From the IMG/VR virus record IMGVR_UViG_2531839473_000011, positions 1 to 25,479 of that record: a DNA stretch of 25,479 bases; one strand, written 5' to 3'. The notes under the pieces are model-generated. The model was not told the DNA's origin, did not search any database, and worked only from the letters and a program-made list of their open reading frames with translations. The position numbers and the translations under genes were made by a program. Shown one piece after another: positions 1-13,632 of this stretch (the first letter of the stretch is position 1; every line of letters begins with the position of its first letter). This DNA is from a virus. Taxonomy: Duplodnaviria > Heunggongvirae > Uroviricota > Caudoviricetes.

Positions 1-99
1 GCTGCTGCTGACAATGGTAATACGTTAACGGGCAATATGCAGTTCACTGCATACCGGTCCGACCCCGTACTGCTCACGCAGCTTATCCAGCAGTGGCAT
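1..99 (-). pseudogene. IS3-family transposase OrfB, 5' portion with an apparent frameshift; rest lies outside the window
   Basis: ATG at 99-97 (minus) opens [24 protein letters not shown] and hits TAA at 27-25. The remaining bases to the window edge read TYYHCQQQ only in the adjacent frame. A single-base change in the CCC run around 31-34 would join the two segments. Confidence 0.4.
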
Positions 100-424
100 A
101 TTTTTTCCAGAGGCGGTCGAACTCCGCCTTCGCAAAATAAGCGGAAGCCTGGCGAAGGATATCGTTACTGCGGCGCAGTTCACGATTTTCACGTTCCAGC
201 TCTTTCAGACGCTGACGTTCAGCGGTGGTGAGCCCACCATCACCGCTCCCGGTATCCCTCTCATGCTGGCGAACCCAGACACGCAGAGTCTCTGGCGTAC
301 AGCCAATCTTTGGAGCAATGGAACAAATTGCCGCCCATTGTGAGTCATATTCGCCCTGACTTTCCAGAACCATACGAACTGCGCGTTGACGGACTTCGGG
401 GGAAAAACGAGTATTTTTAGTCAT
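83..424 (-). CDS. IS3-family transposase OrfA (HTH DNA-binding subunit)
   Basis: 113-aa [29 protein letters not shown]...[36 protein letters not shown], recognisable as IS3-family OrfA. AGGA-containing RBS-like sequence just upstream, inside the terminal repeat. Confidence 0.85.
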
Positions 425-522
425 CCTGTTTACCTCTTTCTCAGGAAGTTTAGTCTCCAGGATTTCCGGGGCGGTTCACGCATACCTTTCAACTAACTAT
501 TCACTATTGGAAATCTTAAGAA

Positions 523-819
523 ATGGAAAGAACAAGTTACAGCAAACTATCACAGCGCGACGTTGATCGCGCAGAAACAGATTTACTCATCAACCTGTCA
601 ACGCTTACACAGCGCGGTCTGGCAAAGATGATTGGCTGTCATGAATCGAAGATAAGCAGAACGGACTGGAGATTTATTGCTTCGGTCTTGTGTGCTTTCG
701 GAATGGCATCAGACATCAGTCCGATTAGCAGGGCTTTTAAGTATGCGCTTGATGAAATCACAAAGAAAAAATCCCCGGCCGCCACCGAGGATTTTAAGCA
801 AATTGATATGCAATTCTGA
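523..819 (+). CDS. cII: CII-like transcriptional activator (lysogeny establishment)
   Basis: 98-aa ORF of lambda CII size with a similar C-terminus (KKKSPAATEDFKQIDMQF versus lambda KKRPAATERSEQIQMEF) and a central HTH-like segment. It sits directly upstream of the replication genes as in lambdoid phages. Confidence 0.75.
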   Translation: MERTSYSKLSQRDVDRAETDLLINLSTLTQRGLAKMIGCHESKISRTDWRFIASVLCAFGMASDISPISRAFKYALDEITKKKSPAATEDFKQIDMQF

Positions 820-851
820 GGGAATTACTGGATCAATCCACAGGAGTCATT

Positions 852-1013
852 ATGACAAAACGTCGTAAGAAATACCAGGAAAAAGAAGAGATTCGACACC
901 CTGATTCACCTGAGGGATTAGTGGTAGCCGCAGCAAATAACAGGGCGTTCGCAGAGCGCCTTGTTGGTGTTTACAGACTAGCCAAAGCAGGAGTGAAACA
1001 TGGGCGTCGTTAA
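852..1013 (+). CDS. Small basic hypothetical protein (53 aa)
   Basis: ATG at 852 preceded by AGGAG (842-846). [56 protein letters not shown] ends at TAA 1011-1013, overlapping the O start at 1000. It is below the 60-aa cut-off of the ORF track. Confidence 0.3.
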   Translation: MTKRRKKYQEKEEIRHPDSPEGLVVAAANNRAFAERLVGVYRLAKAGVKHGRR

Positions 1014-1821
1014 GTTAGCTGATTACAGGCCTCAACTTGAGGTCGTGGAGCATCGCGTGGCAGATACCGAAGATGGTTTCATGCGCGTTGCTAACGAGAT
1101 TACCGACAGTCTGCTGATGGCTGATTTAACCGTCCGGCAGTTGAAGGTGATGCTCGCTATCATGCGCAAGACATACGGATTCAATAAGCCGATGGATCGA
1201 CTCACAAACACGCAGATAGCAGCCATGACAGGTATTCATCACACTCATGTTTGCGCTGCCAAGCGCCAGCTTATCGAGCGTAAATTCCTCATTGCTGATG
1301 GCGTGAAAATCGGAGTGAACAAGGTGGTTTCTCAGTGGATTAGCCAGGGCAGCTTAACATTAGCTAAAACAGCTAATAAAACATTAGCCAAGTCGGCTAA
1401 TGGGTATAAGCCAAGTCAGCTAAACACAAAAGACAATATACAAAAGACAATAAATACAAATACCCCCTTACCCCCTAACGGGGGCGGCGATGGGCAGGTT
1501 AAACCTGAACGTCGCAAGGCAGAACGAATCGACTACGAATCCTTCCTCAACGCCTACAACACCGAAGTCGGTGACAGGCTTCCACACGCTGTTGCGGTCA
1601 ACGAGAAACGCAAACGCCGCCTGAAGAAAATCATCCCGCAACTGAAAACGCCAAACGTGGACGGTTTCAGAGCGTATGTCAGGGCGTTTGTGCATCAGGC
1701 CAAGCCGTTTTACTTCGGAGACAACGACACGGGCTGGACGGCAGATTTTGATTACCTGCTGAGGGAAGATTCGTTAACGGGAGTACGGGAAGGGAAGTTT
1801 GCAGACAGGGGGATTGCATGA
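1000..1821 (+). CDS. O: Replication initiation protein, lambda O-like
   Basis: 273 aa. The N-terminal region ([34 protein letters not shown]) resembles the lambda O DNA-binding domain. AGGAG RBS upstream. An iteron array lies inside the gene, and a helicase gene follows. Confidence 0.8.
1340..1465. other. Candidate origin of replication: four ~18-bp iterons plus an AT-rich tract inside the O gene
   Basis: Iterons TTAGCCAGGGCAGCTTAA (1340), TTAGCTAAAACAGCTAAT (1360), TTAGCCAAGTCGGCTAAT (1384) and TAAGCCAAGTCAGCTAAA (1407), each with internal dyad symmetry and spaced 20-24 bp apart, followed by an A-rich stretch 1425-1465. This matches the lambdoid ori layout inside O. Confidence 0.6.
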
Positions 1822-3194
1822 AACAGGATATCGAAGCGAGCGTTATCGGTGGCTTGCTGATTGGTGGATTAACACCAACTGCCAGTGACGTTCTGGCAAC
1901 GCTGGAGCCGGAAGCGTTTTCAATTCCGCTCTACCGGAAAGCCTTCGAGGTTATCCGCAAGCAGGCGAGAAACAGAAACCTAATCGACGCGCTGATGGTT
2001 GCCGAGGCGTGCGGAGAGGAGCATTTCACGTCAATCCTGATGACCAGCAAAAACTGCCCGAGTGCCGCAAACCTGAAGGGATATGCCGGAATGGTCGCGG
2101 ATAACTATCACCGCCGTCTGGTGCTGGAAATCATGGATGAAATGCGTGAACCAATTCAGAGCGGAACCATCGACGCATCGAGTCAGGCGATGGATGAACT
2201 TGTAAAGCGTCTTTCAGCCATCAGAAAGCCACGTGACGAGGTTAAACCTGTACGGTTAGGGGAAATCATCACCGACTACACTGACACGCTTGACAGGCGT
2301 CTGAGGAACGGAGAAGAGTCCGATACCCTGAAGACCGGAATCGAAGAACTTGATGCCATCACCGGAGGGATGAACGCGGAAGACCTTGTGATAATCGCTG
2401 CTCGTCCTGGTATGGGGAAAACCGAACTGGCGCTGAAGATTGCCGAAGGCGTTGCAAGCCGCGTTATTCCTGGTTCTGACGTCCGGCGCGGAGTGTTGAT
2501 TTTCTCGATGGAAATGAGCGCATTGCAGATTGCAGAGCGAAGCATTGCCAACGCCGGGAGGATGCCGGTTAGCGTGCTGCGAAATCCTGCTTCGATGGAT
2601 GACGAAGGCTGGGCGCGCGTTGCTAACGGCATGAGTCAGCTTGCAGATTTGGATGTATGGGTAGTCGATGCCTCGCGGTTATCGGTCGAAGAAATACGCT
2701 CAATCGCAGAACGGCACAAACAGGAAAATCCAAACCTGTCACTCATCATGGTGGATTATCTTGGCCTGATTGAGAAGCCGAAAGCAGACCGCAACGACCT
2801 CGCAATTGCTCACATCTCCGGAAGCCTGAAGGCGATGGCGAAAGACCTGAAAACGCCAGTTATCTCCCTAAGTCAGCTTTCACGCGATGTTGAGAAGCGA
2901 CCAAACAAACGCCCGACAAACGCAGATTTGCGTGATTCAGGAAGCATTGAACAGGACGCAGACTCAATCATCATGCTCTATCGGGAAGCGGTATATGACG
3001 AGAACAGTAGCGCCGCGCCATTTGCTGAAATCATCGTGACGAAAAACCGTTTTGGCTCACTTGGTACGGTTTACCAGCGGTTCTGCAACGGACACTTTGT
3101 TGCATGTGACCAGGATGAAGCCAGACAGATTTGCACAGCATCAAATGCACCTGCTGCGCGTGGCAGACGATATGCACAAGGGGCTGACGTATGA
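1818..3194 (+). CDS. DnaB-family replicative DNA helicase (P22 gene 12-type)
   Basis: 458 aa with a Walker A motif ([10 protein letters not shown]) and the DnaB C-terminal RecA-like domain pattern. The start overlaps the O stop (ATGA). Confidence 0.85.
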
Positions 3195-3219
3195 CCATCT
3201 ACATCACTGAGCTTGTAAC

Positions 3220-3252
3220 AGGCCTGCTGGTAATCGCAGGCCTTTTTATTTG
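3220..3252 (+). terminator. Rho-independent terminator after the replication genes (position of lambda tR2)
   Basis: Perfect 8-bp stem AGGCCTGC (3220-3227) / GCAGGCCT (3236-3243) with an 8-nt loop, followed by TTTTTATTT. Confidence 0.6.
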
Positions 3253-3266
3253 GGGGAGAGTAAATC

Positions 3267-3473
3267 GTGGTTGAGTTTATGCTCGTCGCACTCAAATGCG
3301 TTGGCGTTGGATGGATTCTTCTGACGTTTTTTATTGTTCTGCATAGCTACATTCGTCTTGTGAATGACGGTAAAGACCCATGGTATACGTTGTTTGGCGC
3401 TGCATTTGTCTGGGTGATTATCGGTGTTATGCCTGTCGCTGTAGCAAAAATGGCGTGGCGTTTTGTGAGTTGA
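3267..3473 (+). CDS. Small hydrophobic protein (68 aa) with two predicted membrane-spanning segments
   Basis: GTG start at 3267 preceded by GGGGGAGAG; an alternative ATG is at 3279. Two hydrophobic stretches (GWILLTFFIVL and AAFVWVIIGVMPVAVA). It sits just downstream of the terminator. Confidence 0.5.
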   Translation: MVEFMLVALKCVGVGWILLTFFIVLHSYIRLVNDGKDPWYTLFGAAFVWVIIGVMPVAVAKMAWRFVS

Positions 3474-3490
3474 ACTGAGGGTAAGTATCG

Positions 3491-3805
3491 ATGGACGAAT
3501 CAAGAAAGCAGTTTGAGGAATACGTTGCCAAAAAATTGAGATTACCATTCGAGATGATAACCGAGGCAAGAAATGGTGATAGGTACTTTGCATTTTCAAG
3601 CATGGATATTCGTCACTCCTTAAATGAGTGGTGGGCTTTATGGCAGGCATCGCGAGCAGCTATTGAAATAACCGCGCCAAAGTTTATCGACAGCAGAGAA
3701 GCATTAGCCAAAGGGTTTACTGTTGATTATTCCAATGGCTTCGGTGATGCAATGGATGCTTATGAGGAAAACATCCGCGCTGCTGGAGTCAAAGTGAAGG
3801 AGTGA
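3491..3805 (+). CDS. Hypothetical protein (104 aa)
   Basis: Intact ORF with local GC visibly lower than its neighbours. No family recognised by eye. Confidence 0.5.
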   Translation: MDESRKQFEEYVAKKLRLPFEMITEARNGDRYFAFSSMDIRHSLNEWWALWQASRAAIEITAPKFIDSREALAKGFTVDYSNGFGDAMDAYEENIRAAGVKVKE

Positions 3806-4393: not shown

Positions 4394-4572
4394 GACGACA
4401 GCGACGAAGTATCACCGACATCATCTGCGAAAACTGCAAATACCTTCCAACGAAGCGCTCCAGAAATAAACGCAAGTCAATCCCAAAAGAATCTGACGTA
4501 AAAACCTTCAACTACACGGCTCACCTGTGGGATATCCGGTGGCTAAGAAATCGTGCGAGGAATACAAGGTGA
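4390..4572 (+). CDS. ninD: NinD-like small protein
   Basis: ATG at 4390 overlaps the NinB stop. Product [29 protein letters not shown]... matches lambda NinD. It is the later part of the 4330-4572 ORF in the track. Confidence 0.75.
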
Positions 4573-4739
4573 TTGACCCAAATCGAAGTTACGAACAAGA
4601 AAGCGTCGAGCGGGCTTTAACGTGCGCTAACTGCGGTCAGAAGCTGCATGTGCTGGAAGTTCACGTGTGTGAGCACTGCTGTGCAGAACTGATGAGCGAT
4701 CCGAATAGCTCAATGTACGAGGAAGAAGACGATGAATGA
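4527..4739 (+). CDS. ninE: NinE-like small protein
   Basis: ...[52 protein letters not shown]... matches lambda NinE. The true start is uncertain (ATG 4527 or GTG 4539). Confidence 0.7.
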
Positions 4740-5454
4740 GTTAATAAATGGCAATGCCATCAAAATGACAAGCATTGAAATCGCTGAGTTGGTGGGTAAG
4801 CGTCATGACAATGTGAAACGTACCATCGAAACGCTGGCTAAAAATGGTGTTATCCGGCTTCCTCAAATTGAGGTTTCCGAAAGAATCAATAACTTAGGAT
4901 TCAATGTTCAGTACGAGCATTACGTATTCGAAGGCGAACAAGGTAAGCGAGATAGTATTGTTGTTGTAGCCCAGTTGTCGCCGGAATTCACCGCTCGTCT
5001 TGTTGACCGTTGGCGAGAGCTTGAAGAAGCTGCGGTTAATATCCCCAAAACGCTACCAGAAGCGTTGCGCCTTGCTGCTGATCTTGCTGAGCAGAAAATG
5101 CAACTGGAAAACCAGCTCGCAATTGCCGCACCTAAAGTTGAGTTTGCCGATCGCGTTGGCGAGGCCAGTGGAATTTTGATTGGAAACTTTGCAAAGGTTG
5201 TTGGAATTGGTCCAAACAAACTGTTTGCGTGGATGCGCGATCACAAAATCCTTATTGCTTCAGGTTCCCGGCGCAATGTGCCAATGCAGGAATATATGGA
5301 GCGCGGCTATTTCACAGTGAAAGAAACAGCGGTCAACACAAATCACGGAATACAGATATCGTTCACCACAAAAATCACCGGGCGTGGTCAACAGTGGCTG
5401 ACCAGAAAGCTGCTCGATAACGGAATGCTGAAAGTAACAGGGGAGGCTGCTTAA
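4732..5454 (+). CDS. Rha-family regulator with a C-terminal ANT/KilAC-like domain (antirepressor-like)
   Basis: 240 aa. The N-terminus (MTSIEIAELVGKRHDNVKRTIETLAKNG) is typical of the phage Rha regulatory domain. The C-terminal half resembles antirepressor C-terminal domains. Confidence 0.7.
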   Translation: MNELINGNAIKMTSIEIAELVGKRHDNVKRTIETLAKNGVIRLPQIEVSERINNLGFNVQYEHYVFEGEQGKRDSIVVVAQLSPEFTARLVDRWRELEEAAVNIPKTLPEALRLAADLAEQKMQLENQLAIAAPKVEFADRVGEASGILIGNFAKVVGIGPNKLFAWMRDHKILIASGSRRNVPMQEYMERGYFTVKETAVNTNHGIQISFTTKITGRGQQWLTRKLLDNGMLKVTGEAA

Positions 5455-5744
5455 TGGCCAATCTACGCAAAGAAGCACGCGGCAGAGAATGTCAGGTACG
5501 TATTTACGGCGTATGCAATGGCAATCCTGAAACTACAGTTCTGGCACATTACCGGATGGCTGGAATTTGCGGAACGGGAATGAAACCTGACGACCTGATT
5601 GGCGCATGGGCTTGTAGCGCGTGTCACGATGAAATCGACCGACGCACCCATAATCTCGACAACAAAGACGCCAGACTTTATCACCTCGAAGGCGTGATCA
5701 GGACGCAGGCGATCCTGCTGAAGGAGGGGAAGATTAAGCCATGA
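5454..5744 (+). CDS. DUF1364-family protein (NinX/YbcO-like, Cys-rich)
   Basis: 96 aa with paired cysteines (CQVRIYGVC ... CSACHDE). It occupies the ninX position; start overlaps the upstream stop. Confidence 0.6.
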   Translation: MANLRKEARGRECQVRIYGVCNGNPETTVLAHYRMAGICGTGMKPDDLIGAWACSACHDEIDRRTHNLDNKDARLYHLEGVIRTQAILLKEGKIKP

Positions 5745-6288: not shown

Positions 6289-6803
6289 GCATAAGAGAAC
6301 TAAACCTCACCAAAGAACAGCACGATTGGCTGAATGGCTGGCTTGAACTGTGGGGCGCATGGGTTTATTCAGGCCGCCTGGAAAAGCGCATGAGCAGCGT
6401 AATAGCGAAGTTCATGGAGAGCGTAGAGCCGGGAAGAGTTATGACAAGGCCAATGTGTAATGATGATGATGGAATGTTGATTTCTCAGGTCGTCGATTCC
6501 GTCATGTACATTGACAAGAAAGCCTTTGGCATCCTCCTCAGCTACTACGCTCATGGTTCATCTAAGCGAGCAATTGCATCCTACTATCACGCGACTGCAA
6601 AGCCACGCAAGATGTGTGGGCGTGGTGGTGAGGGATGGAGAAAACCTTCACTGGCAACCTGTAGAAATGAAATTGACGACATCCTGAAAGCGTCGTTATT
6701 TGTTTTGTACCAACCAATGCAAAATGCTTTCAAAATGCGTAAACGTGTTGAGAAAGTTAAGCATGTTGCTGTTAAAAGCCTTGACATGCAATTAGCCATT
6801 TAG
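6285..6803 (+). CDS. Q: Late-gene antiterminator Q (P22 gene 23 / QuuD-type)
   Basis: 172 aa with LELWGAWVYSG and RPMCNDDDGMLI motifs characteristic of this Q family. It sits directly upstream of the late promoter and lysis genes. Confidence 0.8.
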   Translation: MSIRELNLTKEQHDWLNGWLELWGAWVYSGRLEKRMSSVIAKFMESVEPGRVMTRPMCNDDDGMLISQVVDSVMYIDKKAFGILLSYYAHGSSKRAIASYYHATAKPRKMCGRGGEGWRKPSLATCRNEIDDILKASLFVLYQPMQNAFKMRKRVEKVKHVAVKSLDMQLAI

Positions 6804-8183: not shown

Positions 8184-8617
8184 GCAGAGTAACCGCGATT
8201 ATCTCCGCTCTGGTTATCTGCATCATCGTCTGCCTGTCATGGGCTGTTAATCATTACCGTGATAACGCAATCGCCTACAAAGAGCAGCGCGATAAAGCCA
8301 CGTACATCATCGCTGACATGCAGAAGCGTCAACGTGATGTAGCAGAACTCGACGCCAGATACACAAAGGAGCTTGCTGATGCTAACGCGACTATCGAAAG
8401 TCTCCGTGCTGATGTTTCTGCTGGTCGTAAGCGCCTGCAAGTCGCCGCCACCTGTGCAAAGTCAACGACCGGAGCCAGCAGCATGGGCGATGGAGAAAGC
8501 CCAAGACTTACAGCAGATGCTGAACTCAATTATTACCGTCTCCGAAGTGGAATCGACAGGATAACCGCGCAGGTTAACTACCTGCAGGAGTACATCAGGA
8601 CGCAATGCCTGAAATGA
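8180..8617 (+). CDS. Rz: Rz inner-membrane spanin (i-spanin)
   Basis: 145 aa with an N-terminal transmembrane segment and a coiled-coil periplasmic domain. Position and size match lambda Rz. Confidence 0.85.
8373..8564 (+). CDS. Rz1: Rz1 outer-membrane lipoprotein spanin, embedded in Rz in the +1 frame
   Basis: ORF fully inside Rz in another frame, with a signal-like stretch, lipobox-like VSAC and a proline-rich mature region ([14 protein letters not shown]). The true start may be an internal Met. Confidence 0.6.
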
Positions 8618-9989: not shown

Positions 9990-11466
9990 TAACCTGAGCG
10001 ACGAAGAGCAAATCGAGTTGCTCGAGCTACTCGAAGAAGAAGAGAACTACCGGAACACACACCTGCTATATGAATTTACGCCATACAGCAAACAGCGTGA
10101 GTTCATCGACGCCGGACATGACTATCCAGAGCGATGTTTTATGGCTGGTAACCAGCTTGGTAAGTCATTTACTGGTGCTGCTGAAGTCGCGTTTCACCTT
10201 ACTGGGCGTTATCCGGGAACAAAAGGCTATCCGGCTGATGGTAAATATGGCGGGGAGTGGAAAGGTAAGCGTTTCTATGAGCCTGTTGTCTTCTGGATTG
10301 GTGGCGAGACAAACGAGACTGTAACCAAAACGACTCAACGCATCCTGTGCGGTCGTATCGAAGAGAATGGTGAACCTGGCTACGGTTCCATACCGAAAGA
10401 AGACATCATTAGCTGGAAGAAGTCTCCTTTCTTTCCGAACCTTGTTGATCACCTTCTGGTTAAGCATCACACGGCTGATGGCGTTGAAGATGGCATTTCA
10501 ATCTGTTACTTCAAACCATACTCGCAAGGCCGTGCTCGATGGCAGGGTGACACAATCCACGGTGTGTGGTTTGACGAAGAGCCACCATACAGCATTTATG
10601 GCGAAGGGCTTACCCGTACCAACAAATACGGGCAATTCTCAATTCTGACGTTTACCCCGCTGATGGGGATGTCTGACGTTGTTACCAAGTTCCTGAAGAA
10701 TCCCAGCAAGTCTCAGAAAGTGGTCAACATGACCATCTATGACGCTGAGCACTACACCGACGAGCAGAAAGAGCAAATCATCGCATCCTATCCTGAGCAT
10801 GAGAGAGAGGCGCGTGCTCGCGGTATTCCTACGATGGGTAGCGGGCGAATATTCCAGATACCGGAAGAGACGATTAAGTGTCAGCCGTTCGAGTGTCCTG
10901 ATCACTTCTACGTAATTGGCGGGATGGATTTCGGATGGGATCACCCGCAGGCGCATGTTCAGCTTTGGTGGGATAAAGACGCAGACACAATCTACGTTTC
11001 ACGCGTGTGGAAGGCGAAAGAAAAAACAGCCGTTCAGGCGTGGGGAGCCGTTAAATCATGGGCGCATAAAGTGCCAACCGCATGGCCTCATGACGGAAAC
11101 CAGCATGAGAAGGGCGGCGGTGAGCAGCTCAAAGGGCAGTATGCAGACGCTGGATTTATGATGTTACAGGAGCATGCGACATGGCCTGATGGCGGTAATG
11201 CTGTTGAGCCTGGCATCACTGAATTGCGCGACATGATGCTCGATGGTCGCTTCAAAGTATTCAACACCTGTGAGCCATTCTTTGAGGAGTTCCGCCTCTA
11301 TCACCGTGATGAAAACGGGAAAATCGTCAAGCTTAACGACGACGTTCTCTCAGCCGTTCGCTATGCATACATGATGCGCCGCTTTGCCAAAATGATGCGC
11401 GACATCAAAAAACCAAAAGAGAAAAAGATACCAGCCCCAATCAGGCCCATCGCACGGAGAACTTAA
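9967..11466 (+). CDS. Terminase large subunit (P22 gp2-type)
   Basis: 499 aa, same length and gene position as P22 gp2. Start (GTG at 9967) overlaps the end of terS. Confidence 0.9.
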
Positions 11467-13632
11467 ATGGCCGACGAAAACAGACTCAATTCCATTCTGT
11501 GTAAGTTTGACGCGGACTGGATGGCGAGCGATGAAGCCAGAACCGAGGCGACAAATGACCTGTATTTTAGCCGAGTGTCGCAATGGGATGACTGGCTATC
11601 AAACTACACCACCCTGCAATATCGCGGACAATTCGATGTTGTCCGCCCGGTTGTCAGGAAACTGGTCGCAGAGATGCGCCGTAACCCTATCGACGTTCTC
11701 TTCAGACCAAAAGACGGCGCTAATCCTGATGCTGCCGATGTGTTGATGGGAATGTATCGTACTGATATGCGCCATAACACGGCAAAAATTGCCGTTAACG
11801 TTGGCGTTCGTGAGCAGATAGAGTCCGGCGTTGGTGCATGGCGTCTGGTCACACAGTACGAAGACAACGACCCAACAAGCAACAATCAGGTAATCCGACG
11901 CCTGCCAATCCATGAAGCCTGCTCACACGTCATATGGGACGCCAACAGCAAGCAGATGGATAAGAGCGACGCTAAGCACTGCACGGTGATTAACGCTTTG
12001 TCACGCAATGGCTGGAAAGAGTTCGCAGAGGATTACGGTATTGATCCTGACACCTTGCCATCTTTCCAGAATCCTAACGATACATGGCTATTCCCGTGGG
12101 TGTCGAATGATGTCGTCTACGTCGCTGAGTATTACGAGGTAGAAGAGAAGAAGGAGAGAGTCTTCATCTACCGCGACCCGCTGACAGGTGAGCCGGTCAG
12201 CTATTACCAGCAGGATATCAAAGACGTCATCGACGACCTGGCTAATCGTGGATTCATTAAGGTAGCAGAGCGCAAGGTGAAGCGTCGGCGTGTGTATAAG
12301 TCGATCATCACCTGCACGCAGATACTGAAAGACCGCGAGAAGATAGCCGGAGAGCATATTCCAATCGTTCCAGTGTATGGTGAATGGTCATTCGCTGGTG
12401 ACAAGGAGTGCTACGAGGGCGTGGTAAGACTGACGAAAGACGGTCAACGCCTTCGTAACATGATCATGTCGTTCAACGCCGATATCGTTGCTCGTTCACC
12501 GAAGAAGAAACCTACCTTCTTCCCTGAGCAAATCGAAGGCTACGAATACATGTACGGTGGAAATGATGACTATCCGTACTATCTGCAGAACAGGACCGAT
12601 GAAAACGGTAACGACCTGCCGATTGGTCCAATCTCCTACATGGAAAACCCTGAAGTGCCGCAAGCCAACGCTTACATGCTTGAGGCTGCCACCAACGCAG
12701 TGAAAGAGGTGGCTAGTCTTGGCGTGGATGCGCAGGCGGCAAACTCTCAGGTCGCTTTCGATACCGTCAATCAACTGAACATGCGGGCAGATCTTGAGAC
12801 ATACGTGTTTCAGGATAACCTGGCTACCGCAATGCGACGTGATGGCGAGATTTATGCCTCAATGGTCAACGATATTTATGACGTTCCTCGTCATGTAACG
12901 CTGACACTTGAAGATGGAAGCGAGAAAGACGTTCAACTCTATGCGCAAGTTGTCGATTATCAGTCCGGCAATGTGGTCACACTCAACGACATTCGCGGTC
13001 GCTATGAGTGCTATACGGACGTTGGGCCATCCTTCCAGAGCATGAAGGAACAGAACCGCGCAGAGATTCAGGAGTTACTCACCAAGGTTCCGCAAGGTAC
13101 TCCAGAGTTCCAGATGCTGATGCTGCAATACTTCACGCTGCTTGACGGTAAAGGCGTCGAGATGATGCGAGAGTACGCGAACAAGCAACTGGTGATGATG
13201 GGGCTGAAGAAACCAGAAACACCTGAAGAGATGGAGATGGTACAGCAGGCTCAACAGCAGCCGCAGCAGCCATCAGCAGAGCAAATTCAGGCGCAGGGCA
13301 TTCTTCTGCAAGGTCAGGCTGAATTGCTCAAGGCAGAGAACCAACAGGCGCAGATTCAGGTTGAAGCCGCCAAGGTTGAAGCCCAAAACCAACTCAACGC
13401 CGCGAAGATTGCAGAAATCTTCAACAATATGGACCTCGACAAGCAGGCAGAACTGCGTGAGTACCTCAAGCTCGTAGGTCAATTCCAGCAACAGCGCAGC
13501 AAAGATGCTCGTGCTAACGCTGAGCTGCTTCTTAAAGATGCAGACCAGACTCATTCACAACGCATGGACTTCGCGAATCTTATGCGTCAAGTTCAAATCC
13601 CCTCCGGCGGAGTAGCCGAGACACCTCAATAA
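11467..13632 (+). CDS. Portal protein (P22 gp1-type)
   Basis: 721 aa with a long C-terminal Q/A/E-rich helical segment (…[55 protein letters not shown]…) typical of the P22 portal barrel. Follows terL. Confidence 0.9.

Follow-up and report, generated by a model that had tools for sequence, protein, structure and literature searches.

The early genes at the left of the window (the whole stretch of DNA analyzed here, 25,479 nucleotides) are intact and are read rightward. The cII gene (523..819, +) encodes a protein of 98 amino acid residues that matched Pfam Phage_CII (6.3e-32), in agreement with the start at 523 proposed by the first-pass annotation. It is followed by an intact, conserved ORF of 53 residues (852..1013, +), by the gene of the replication initiator (1000..1821, +; Phage_rep_O, 5.9e-33) and by that of a DnaB-type replicative helicase of the P22 gene-12 type (1818..3194, +; DnaB_C, 1.1e-78), both of which are also intact. 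The order cII, initiator, helicase is that of a lambdoid early-right operon. The remainder of the window carries the nin region, Q, the lysis genes and P22-type packaging, portal, ejection and tailspike genes; the prophage is P22-like in its late genes and is not an Stx phage. A protein identical to its CII was found to be widespread in O157 Stx prophages, including those of Stx2, and the contexts returned for it were intact cI-cro-cII. A strong intrinsic-terminator-like hairpin (12-bp stem and T-run; 768-795, −) lies within the 3′ end of cII and points leftward, at the position of the terminator tO of the lambda oop RNA.

The stretch to the left of cII is occupied by an IS629/IS1203-type element of the IS3 family in minus-strand orientation, whose left 478 bp (IRL end, orfA and the start of orfB) fill positions 1..478 (−). 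The piece was 99.4% identical to a complete 1310-bp element of E. coli RM9088 annotated as "IS3 family transposase" (L023 371-1680), of which it covers positions 831-1310; its identity to a copy of the IS629/IS1203 type from O157 was 97.1%. Overall, the IS copy showed 93-97% identity to the O157 copy and 99.4-99.8% identity to copies of non-O157 strains. The orfA gene (83..424, −) encodes 113 amino acid residues with the Pfam domain HTH_Tnp_1 (1.6e-12), and the 3′ part of orfB (L016 6748-7141, −), which lies in the scaffold sequence beyond the window, holds rve, rve_3 and rve_2, that is, a domain of the DDE (rve) type. Two consecutive overlapping transposase ORFs of the IS3 family, orfA with the HTH and orfB with the DDE domain, were thus found, the middle 394 bp of the element being inside a scaffold gap. 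An ALIL pseudoknot (Rfam RF01497; 29..143, −) reached 103.5 bits (gathering score 50; E = 5e-27), and an A6 slippery site (101-106, −; a T-run on the + strand) falls within the same interval. Together they are recognizable as the programmed −1 frameshift signal of IS3-family transposases, and RefSeq carries the labels "programmed frameshift" and "AL1L pseudoknot" on a near-identical IS copy. The identification of this stretch as an IS is not a chance resemblance, and the earlier statement that IS sequence lies to the left of cII is borne out for positions 1-478 by HTH_Tnp_1, by RF01497 and by the identity to the reference copy.

Two single-base deletions, near positions ∼30 and ∼99, were observed in the IS piece relative to the 99.4% identical complete copy, and one of them falls within a G-run. 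The other, TT to T just 3′ of the A6 slippery site (minus strand), alters the stop of orfA, which ends after 113 residues and not in LWKK, and it would break the OrfAB frame. Both deletions lie near the contig end, where the scaffold record has an N at window position 27; they may be sequencing errors or they may mark an inactivated transposase.

The terminal inverted repeat IRL, TGAACCGCCCCGGAAATCCTGGAGA, occupies positions 454..478 (−), and 22 of its first 25 bases equal the IRR at L016 6706-6730. IRL and IRR each begin with TGAACCGCCCCGG and form an imperfect inverted repeat of the TG...CA kind. The reverse complement of TGAACCGCCCCGG ends at base 478, which is the last base of the IS, and the same terminus was found in the L023 and L024 copies. 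Together, the inverted-repeat alignment and the target duplication place the boundary at 478/479. The first-pass annotation had put the IS terminus at 479; that base belongs to the duplicated CGC (479-481), so the element does lie just upstream of cII as it said, although the distance to the ATG, given there as 43 bp, becomes 44 nt with the duplicated CGC included. A boundary at window position 471, where the BLAST matches to the empty site begin, was rejected as an artefact of similarity between target and IS end. The target, GCGTTTCCA followed by CGC, resembles the IS end, GCGGTTCA followed by CGC (window 471-481 vs L015 8653-8664), and this resemblance may be chance or may reflect an IR-like target preference of the IS.

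Comparison with the empty site identified the right copy of a 3-bp target-site duplication, CGC, at 479..481; the left copy (L016 6703-6705) lies outside the window, and CGC therefore flanks both ends of the element, a 3-bp target duplication as found for the IS3 family, in which 4 bp are rare. The filled site reads TTTCCACGC-IS-CGCATACC, as against TTTCCACGCATACC for the empty site. The empty site, ATATGCGTTTCCACGCATACC, was read in the IS-free prophage L015 and in L001, where CGC is single; over the immunity, replication and nin regions, L015 shares 99.4-99.6% identity with the IS-carrying prophage. The two flanks are continuous in IS-free relatives and CGC stands on both sides, which is the signature of one transposition event. 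This was a simple transposition in which CGC was duplicated and nothing was deleted. The transposase genes point away from cII, with IRL adjoining cII and IRR adjoining nutR. An exact search for the 38-nt IS-cII junction found it in none of 5426 complete E. coli genomes, ∼220 of which hold the uninterrupted site, and the exact junction was likewise absent from the collections of phage, viral-contig, species-representative and metagenome sequences. Events of this kind have long been known; an insertion at this particular point was found in no collection searched.

The window corresponds to the scaffold record L016 (NCBI GCA_000190955.1, scaffold GL872042.1) from position 8184 onward, where a run of 1042 N ends; the overlap comprises 13,194 bases that are identical save for one N in the scaffold record. 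Exact matches to the proteins of the window carried consecutive accessions of one draft genome, and it was the helicase that led to this scaffold, the identical CII being too common to do so. The window begins inside the IS because the assembly breaks in this repeat. To the left of the gap, 436 bp of the far IS end were found, with the terminus at L016 6706 preceded by ATATGCGTTTCCACGC. This piece aligned to positions 1-436 of the 1310-bp reference with 99.8% identity, and both pieces are collinear and in the same orientation on that copy. Of the full-length element, the pieces of 436 and 478 bp are thus seen, and between them lies the 1042-N gap (L016 7142-8183). The gap is declared as 1042 N vs the 394 bp that a single 1310-bp IS copy needs; extra inserted DNA inside it, besides the ∼394 bp of hidden IS, is possible.

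Beyond the far IS end, the immunity region was read in the scaffold. A cro-like gene encoding 71 residues (L016 6390-6605, +) lies to the left of the IS, and a cI-like gene (HTH_3 and Peptidase_S24; 231 amino acid residues; L016 5620-6315, −) and an N gene (N_peptide, PF25694; 90 residues; L016 5002-5274, −) follow further left; the lengths of all three products equal those in IS-free relatives. By consensus match, a PR-like promoter was placed at L016 6334-6363 (+) and a PL-like promoter at 5493-5465 (−), and a terminator follows cI. The region has the divergent cI/cro pair, with putative promoters directly upstream, that characterizes a lambdoid early-right operon. A T-run upstream of the −35 of the PR-like promoter has 5 T in L016 (6318-6330) vs 6 T in L015 (8277-8290), a difference that may be real or a homopolymer sequencing error. 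A scan of the immunity region against Rfam matched no described RNA family.

The core GCTGAAAAGC of a boxB occurs exactly twice in the 21-kb locus, where 0.08 copies would be expected by chance: once 45 nt past the cro stop (+ strand) and once upstream of N (− strand). Each copy is preceded by a boxA-like GCTCTTT. Between the two sites the boxB stems have changed in a compensatory manner (GGCT/AGCC in nutL, CGCT/AGCG in nutR), while a TACGT spacer and the boxB loop are shared. A small hairpin between boxA and boxB is also compensated, with GTCGA..TCGAC vs GGAC..GTCC (L016 5365-5425, −, and 6605-6670, +). As read from these motifs, the paired boxA/boxB sites are nutR and nutL, and nutR is intact and promoter-proximal to the IS; an N gene is accordingly accompanied by paired nutL and nutR, each downstream of a promoter. 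PR, cro and nutR have been shifted ∼1.31 kb further from cII and none of them has been lost, so that the order is now PL-nutL-N / cI / PR-cro-nutR (boxA, boxB)-[half hairpin]-IS (antisense)-[half hairpin]-PRE start-cII-O-helicase. The first-pass annotation had supposed that the insertion removed or displaced PR-cro-nutR. Displacement from cII-O-helicase is what was found; removal is contradicted by L016, in which nutR, cro, the PR-like promoter, cI, nutL and N are intact, and directly beyond the far IS end stand CGC, nutR, cro, the PR-like promoter and cI. It had also raised the case of an intact PR-cro-nutR beyond an IS lying in a non-essential spacer, and most of this case is borne out here, save that the spacer interrupted by the IS contained the hairpin and the predicted PRE leader described below.

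In the intact spacer of L015, the sequence TATGCGT-TTCC-ACGCATA folds as a hairpin of 7 bp, with its 3′ end 39 nt upstream of the cII ATG. The IS entered the 3′ arm of this hairpin, the remnant of which (CGCATA; 479..484, +) was recognized from the fold predicted in the intact relative, and neither of the halves flanking the IS keeps a significant fold. The order in lambda is pR-cro-nutR-tR1-cII-O-P (PMC5869508). There, a hairpin ends 33 nt upstream of the cII ATG, right after the annotated rutB, and rutA and rutB flank nutR. Unrelated hairpins ending 33-34 nt upstream of cII were also found with lambda-type-Cro and P22-type-Cro immunity. The positions are L025 404-428 (lambda), L015 8650-8667, L013 8671-8688 (lambda-Cro type) and L014 8638-8664 (P22-Cro type). 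By position, and by analogy with lambda, the split hairpin would be the tR1-region hairpin. A stable hairpin 33-39 nt upstream of cII was thus observed in 4 immunity types with unrelated spacers.

A candidate PRE promoter was located on the opposite strand at the start of cII. Its predicted −10 element, TAAGAT, lies at 513..518 (read 518..513, −), in the register that the PRE elements of lambda have relative to the cII ATG, and by the same analogy leftward transcription would start near 506, ∼28 nt before the IS end. The putative CII-binding repeat of the −35 region, TTGC-N6-TTGT (TTGC-TGTAAC-TTGT), occupies 532..545 (−) within cII codons 4-8. A CII-binding consensus of the TTGC-N6-TTGC type is well established for lambda. 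At +10..+23 of the cII ATG the window has ACAAGTTACAGCAA, and lambda has GCAAACAAACGCAA exactly there. On sequence and register, then, a repeat of the TTGC-N6-TTGC type was found on the opposite strand in the first cII codons, which is where the promoter pE is embedded, reading leftward (PMC5869508). The IS end AGGATTTCC (459-467) is complementary to GGAAATCTT (509-517) in the ribosome-binding region of cII; this pairing of 9 bp in the predicted junction RNA gave a fold no more stable than shuffled sequences (z = 0.0).

The arrangement from nutR through the putative tR1 and PRE to cII is like that of lambda in order and register, with boxA, boxB, hairpin and a TTGC-N6-TTGY repeat at +10..+23, and the likeness extends to a −10-like hexamer on the opposite strand that ends 5 nt before the cII ATG and to the oop-like terminator in the 3′ end of cII. 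It differs from lambda in that the sequences are unrelated save for the PRE/cII-start segment.

Taken together, these observations are best accounted for by a single IS629/IS1203-type transposition between nutR and cII in a P22-like lambdoid prophage, with functional consequences for its early genes, a reading that we hold to be probable; the structural points were read directly, and the consequences that follow we infer. On induction, transcripts from PR would have to cross 1.31 kb of untranslated antisense IS RNA, a Rho substrate, and the IS would be strongly polar through Rho if N were missing. The polymerase passes nutR before it reaches the IS, and once modified by N it would read through. 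Because nutR is promoter-proximal and the N gene is apparently intact, N-antiterminated transcription should reach cII, O and the helicase, which would remain expressed in a strictly N-dependent manner, perhaps later or at a lower level. Reportedly, N relieves the polarity of IS insertions, a finding said to go back to Adhya et al. in 1974. Read-through of the antisense IS is presumed here from the precedent of lambda and H-19B, in which N counters Rho not only at tR1 but also at a further, distal terminator (PMC3526286).

The insertion would also have destroyed the tR1-position hairpin, and N-independent leak-through would be lost. After infection, the leftward PRE transcript activated by CII would have to cross the entire IS, in sense orientation, to reach anti-cro and cI. 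The establishment of repressor should weaken as a result, giving a cy-like phenotype with lower lysogenisation, and transcription from PRE would incidentally enter the transposase genes. In the resting lysogen, cI would be made from PRM and the insertion would be neutral, which would explain its persistence. We consider lost N-independent leak-through and weaker PRE-to-cI coupling to be likelier defects than a block of replication. Phages of the P22 type package DNA by headful, and the extra 1.3 kb may strain this process. Other defects of the prophage may exist, since its left end and attachment sites lie outside the sequence examined.

The strongest form of polarity would be an absolute block between PR and the replication genes, so that the prophage could not replicate on induction and would be effectively dead. 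The long untranslated antisense RNA between nutR and cII is in keeping with such a block, and insertion of IS elements is one of the recognised ways in which O157 prophages become defective (PMC2669165). Within the IS, two weak terminator-like hairpins were found in the direction of PR, but their stems of 5-6 bp did not exceed shuffled expectation and a strong intrinsic terminator was not seen in that direction. No compensating promoter was found either: a consensus scan of both strands of window positions 1-900 and of a complete IS copy returned no sigma-70-like promoter. An absolute block, however, requires failure of N read-through. The N gene is intact, as is nutR with its boxA and boxB, which transcripts from PR meet before the IS, and N-modified complexes withstand both Rho and distal terminators (PMC3526286). 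By this analogy, the replication block as it had been stated in the first-pass annotation is unlikely.

The same scan bears on the idea that the IRL end of the IS supplies or creates an outward promoter driving cII, O and the helicase independently of PR, to which we give hardly any credence. A hybrid site picked out by eye, TTCACG (475-480) and TATTCA (498-503) spaced by 17 nt, matched 7 of 12 consensus positions and was rejected as too weak. IS3-family elements are known to have an outward −35 within IRR; in this prophage it is IRL that adjoins cII, and IRR faces nutR and cro. Moreover, it would be harmful if a repressed prophage made O and helicase constitutively, as lambda c17 illustrates. 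With N read-through, an outward IS promoter would not be needed for the expression of cII, O and the helicase, contrary to what the first-pass annotation had proposed. It is also very improbable, though slightly less so than the outward promoter, that the apparent structure is an assembly artefact or an IS-mediated rearrangement, with contigs that are not truly adjacent, or that end in two different IS copies separated by other DNA or by a deletion. In its favor, the scaffold declares 1042 N at the join where one IS copy needs 394 bp, and O157:H7 OK1 provides a real case of an IS629-associated deletion that took the whole immunity region. Against it, each flank runs exactly into the other in IS-free relatives, CGC stands on both sides, and the IS pieces align in order and in one orientation on the reference copy.

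A further reading is that the insertion rewires the phage, coupling the transposase to the lysis-lysogeny choice, turning tR1 into a strict N-dependent barrier and reflecting an IR-like or structure-directed choice of target; we regard this as quite unlikely. If it were true, the transposase genes would lie in the sense direction ∼80 nt downstream of a CII-activated PRE start, so that transposition would be tied to the lysis-lysogeny decision. The leaky tR1 would have become a Rho-sensitive barrier of 1.3 kb that keeps the prophage more tightly silent, and the choice of a hairpin target resembling the IS end would be IR-like or directed by structure. The simple transposition set out above, an ordinary IS-in-prophage event, has probably weakened early gene control and removed no part of it.

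Insertions of the same IS type were found in Stx prophages of O157:H7 that share with the window the cII-O-helicase module and the identical CII protein. One of them (L002, O157) has IS629 at 4400-5710, in the cII-to-O interval, where the usual ORF of 53 residues is no longer annotated, and another (L007, O157) has it at 10620-11980, inside the O gene. The top megablast matches spanning the whole 3.2 kb represent another arrangement, with IS629 between cII and O, and were set aside. The site at the tR1 position, 44 nt upstream of cII, differs from those of the O157 Stx prophages, and no insertion there was found in the 5426 complete E. coli genomes or in any other collection searched. The module with the identical cII has been hit repeatedly by IS629 in O157-type prophages, which carry the element elsewhere in the early region as well. 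IS629 insertions are common in O157 lambdoid prophages (PMC4587872; PMC2669165), and Stx2a phages of one type are described as varying chiefly in the copy number and position of IS629 (PMC4587872). The DNA from which Stx2a phages with IS629 were sequenced came from induced phage (PMC4587872). A search for virion-derived phage records with IS629 between PR and the replication genes matched unannotated prophage extracts.

A comparable position is seen in the prophage of O157:H7 OK1 (L024, NZ_CP038313.1), in which IS629 occupies 2289-3598 and, as in the window, has its IRL toward cII within the nutR-cII interval. In OK1, IRL adjoins the boxB part of a nutR of the P22-cro type, ∼97 nt upstream of cII, and IRR adjoins gam. 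The OK1 prophage lacks kil, cIII, N, cI, cro and boxA, whereas in the prophage of the window the flanks are contiguous and the target is duplicated. As read from its gene content, OK1 is an IS-associated deletion of the whole immunity region and matches the scenario of removal.

Polar insertions in the y/cII region of lambda are classical: r32 is an insertion of IS2 and r14 of IS1, and both are reported to be polar on O and P without N, which relieves the polarity. As in the prophage of the window, the IS separates PR-cro-nutR from the replication genes. The lambda insertions differ in being of other IS elements in another phage and in being laboratory mutants with measured phenotypes, whereas the window presents a natural prophage.

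For annotation, what matters most in practice is that PR-cro-nutR seem to be lost only because a contig happens to end inside the IS, and this prophage should not be scored as deleted or dead because its window starts there. A specialist would be unlikely to be surprised by the event itself. It provides a natural counterpart of the classical polar-insertion experiments in lambda, in a P22-like phage that shares the cII-replication module of the O157 Stx prophages. It may help to show to what extent N antitermination protects prophages from damage by IS elements, and whether an interrupted leader between PRE and cI shifts a phage toward lysis.
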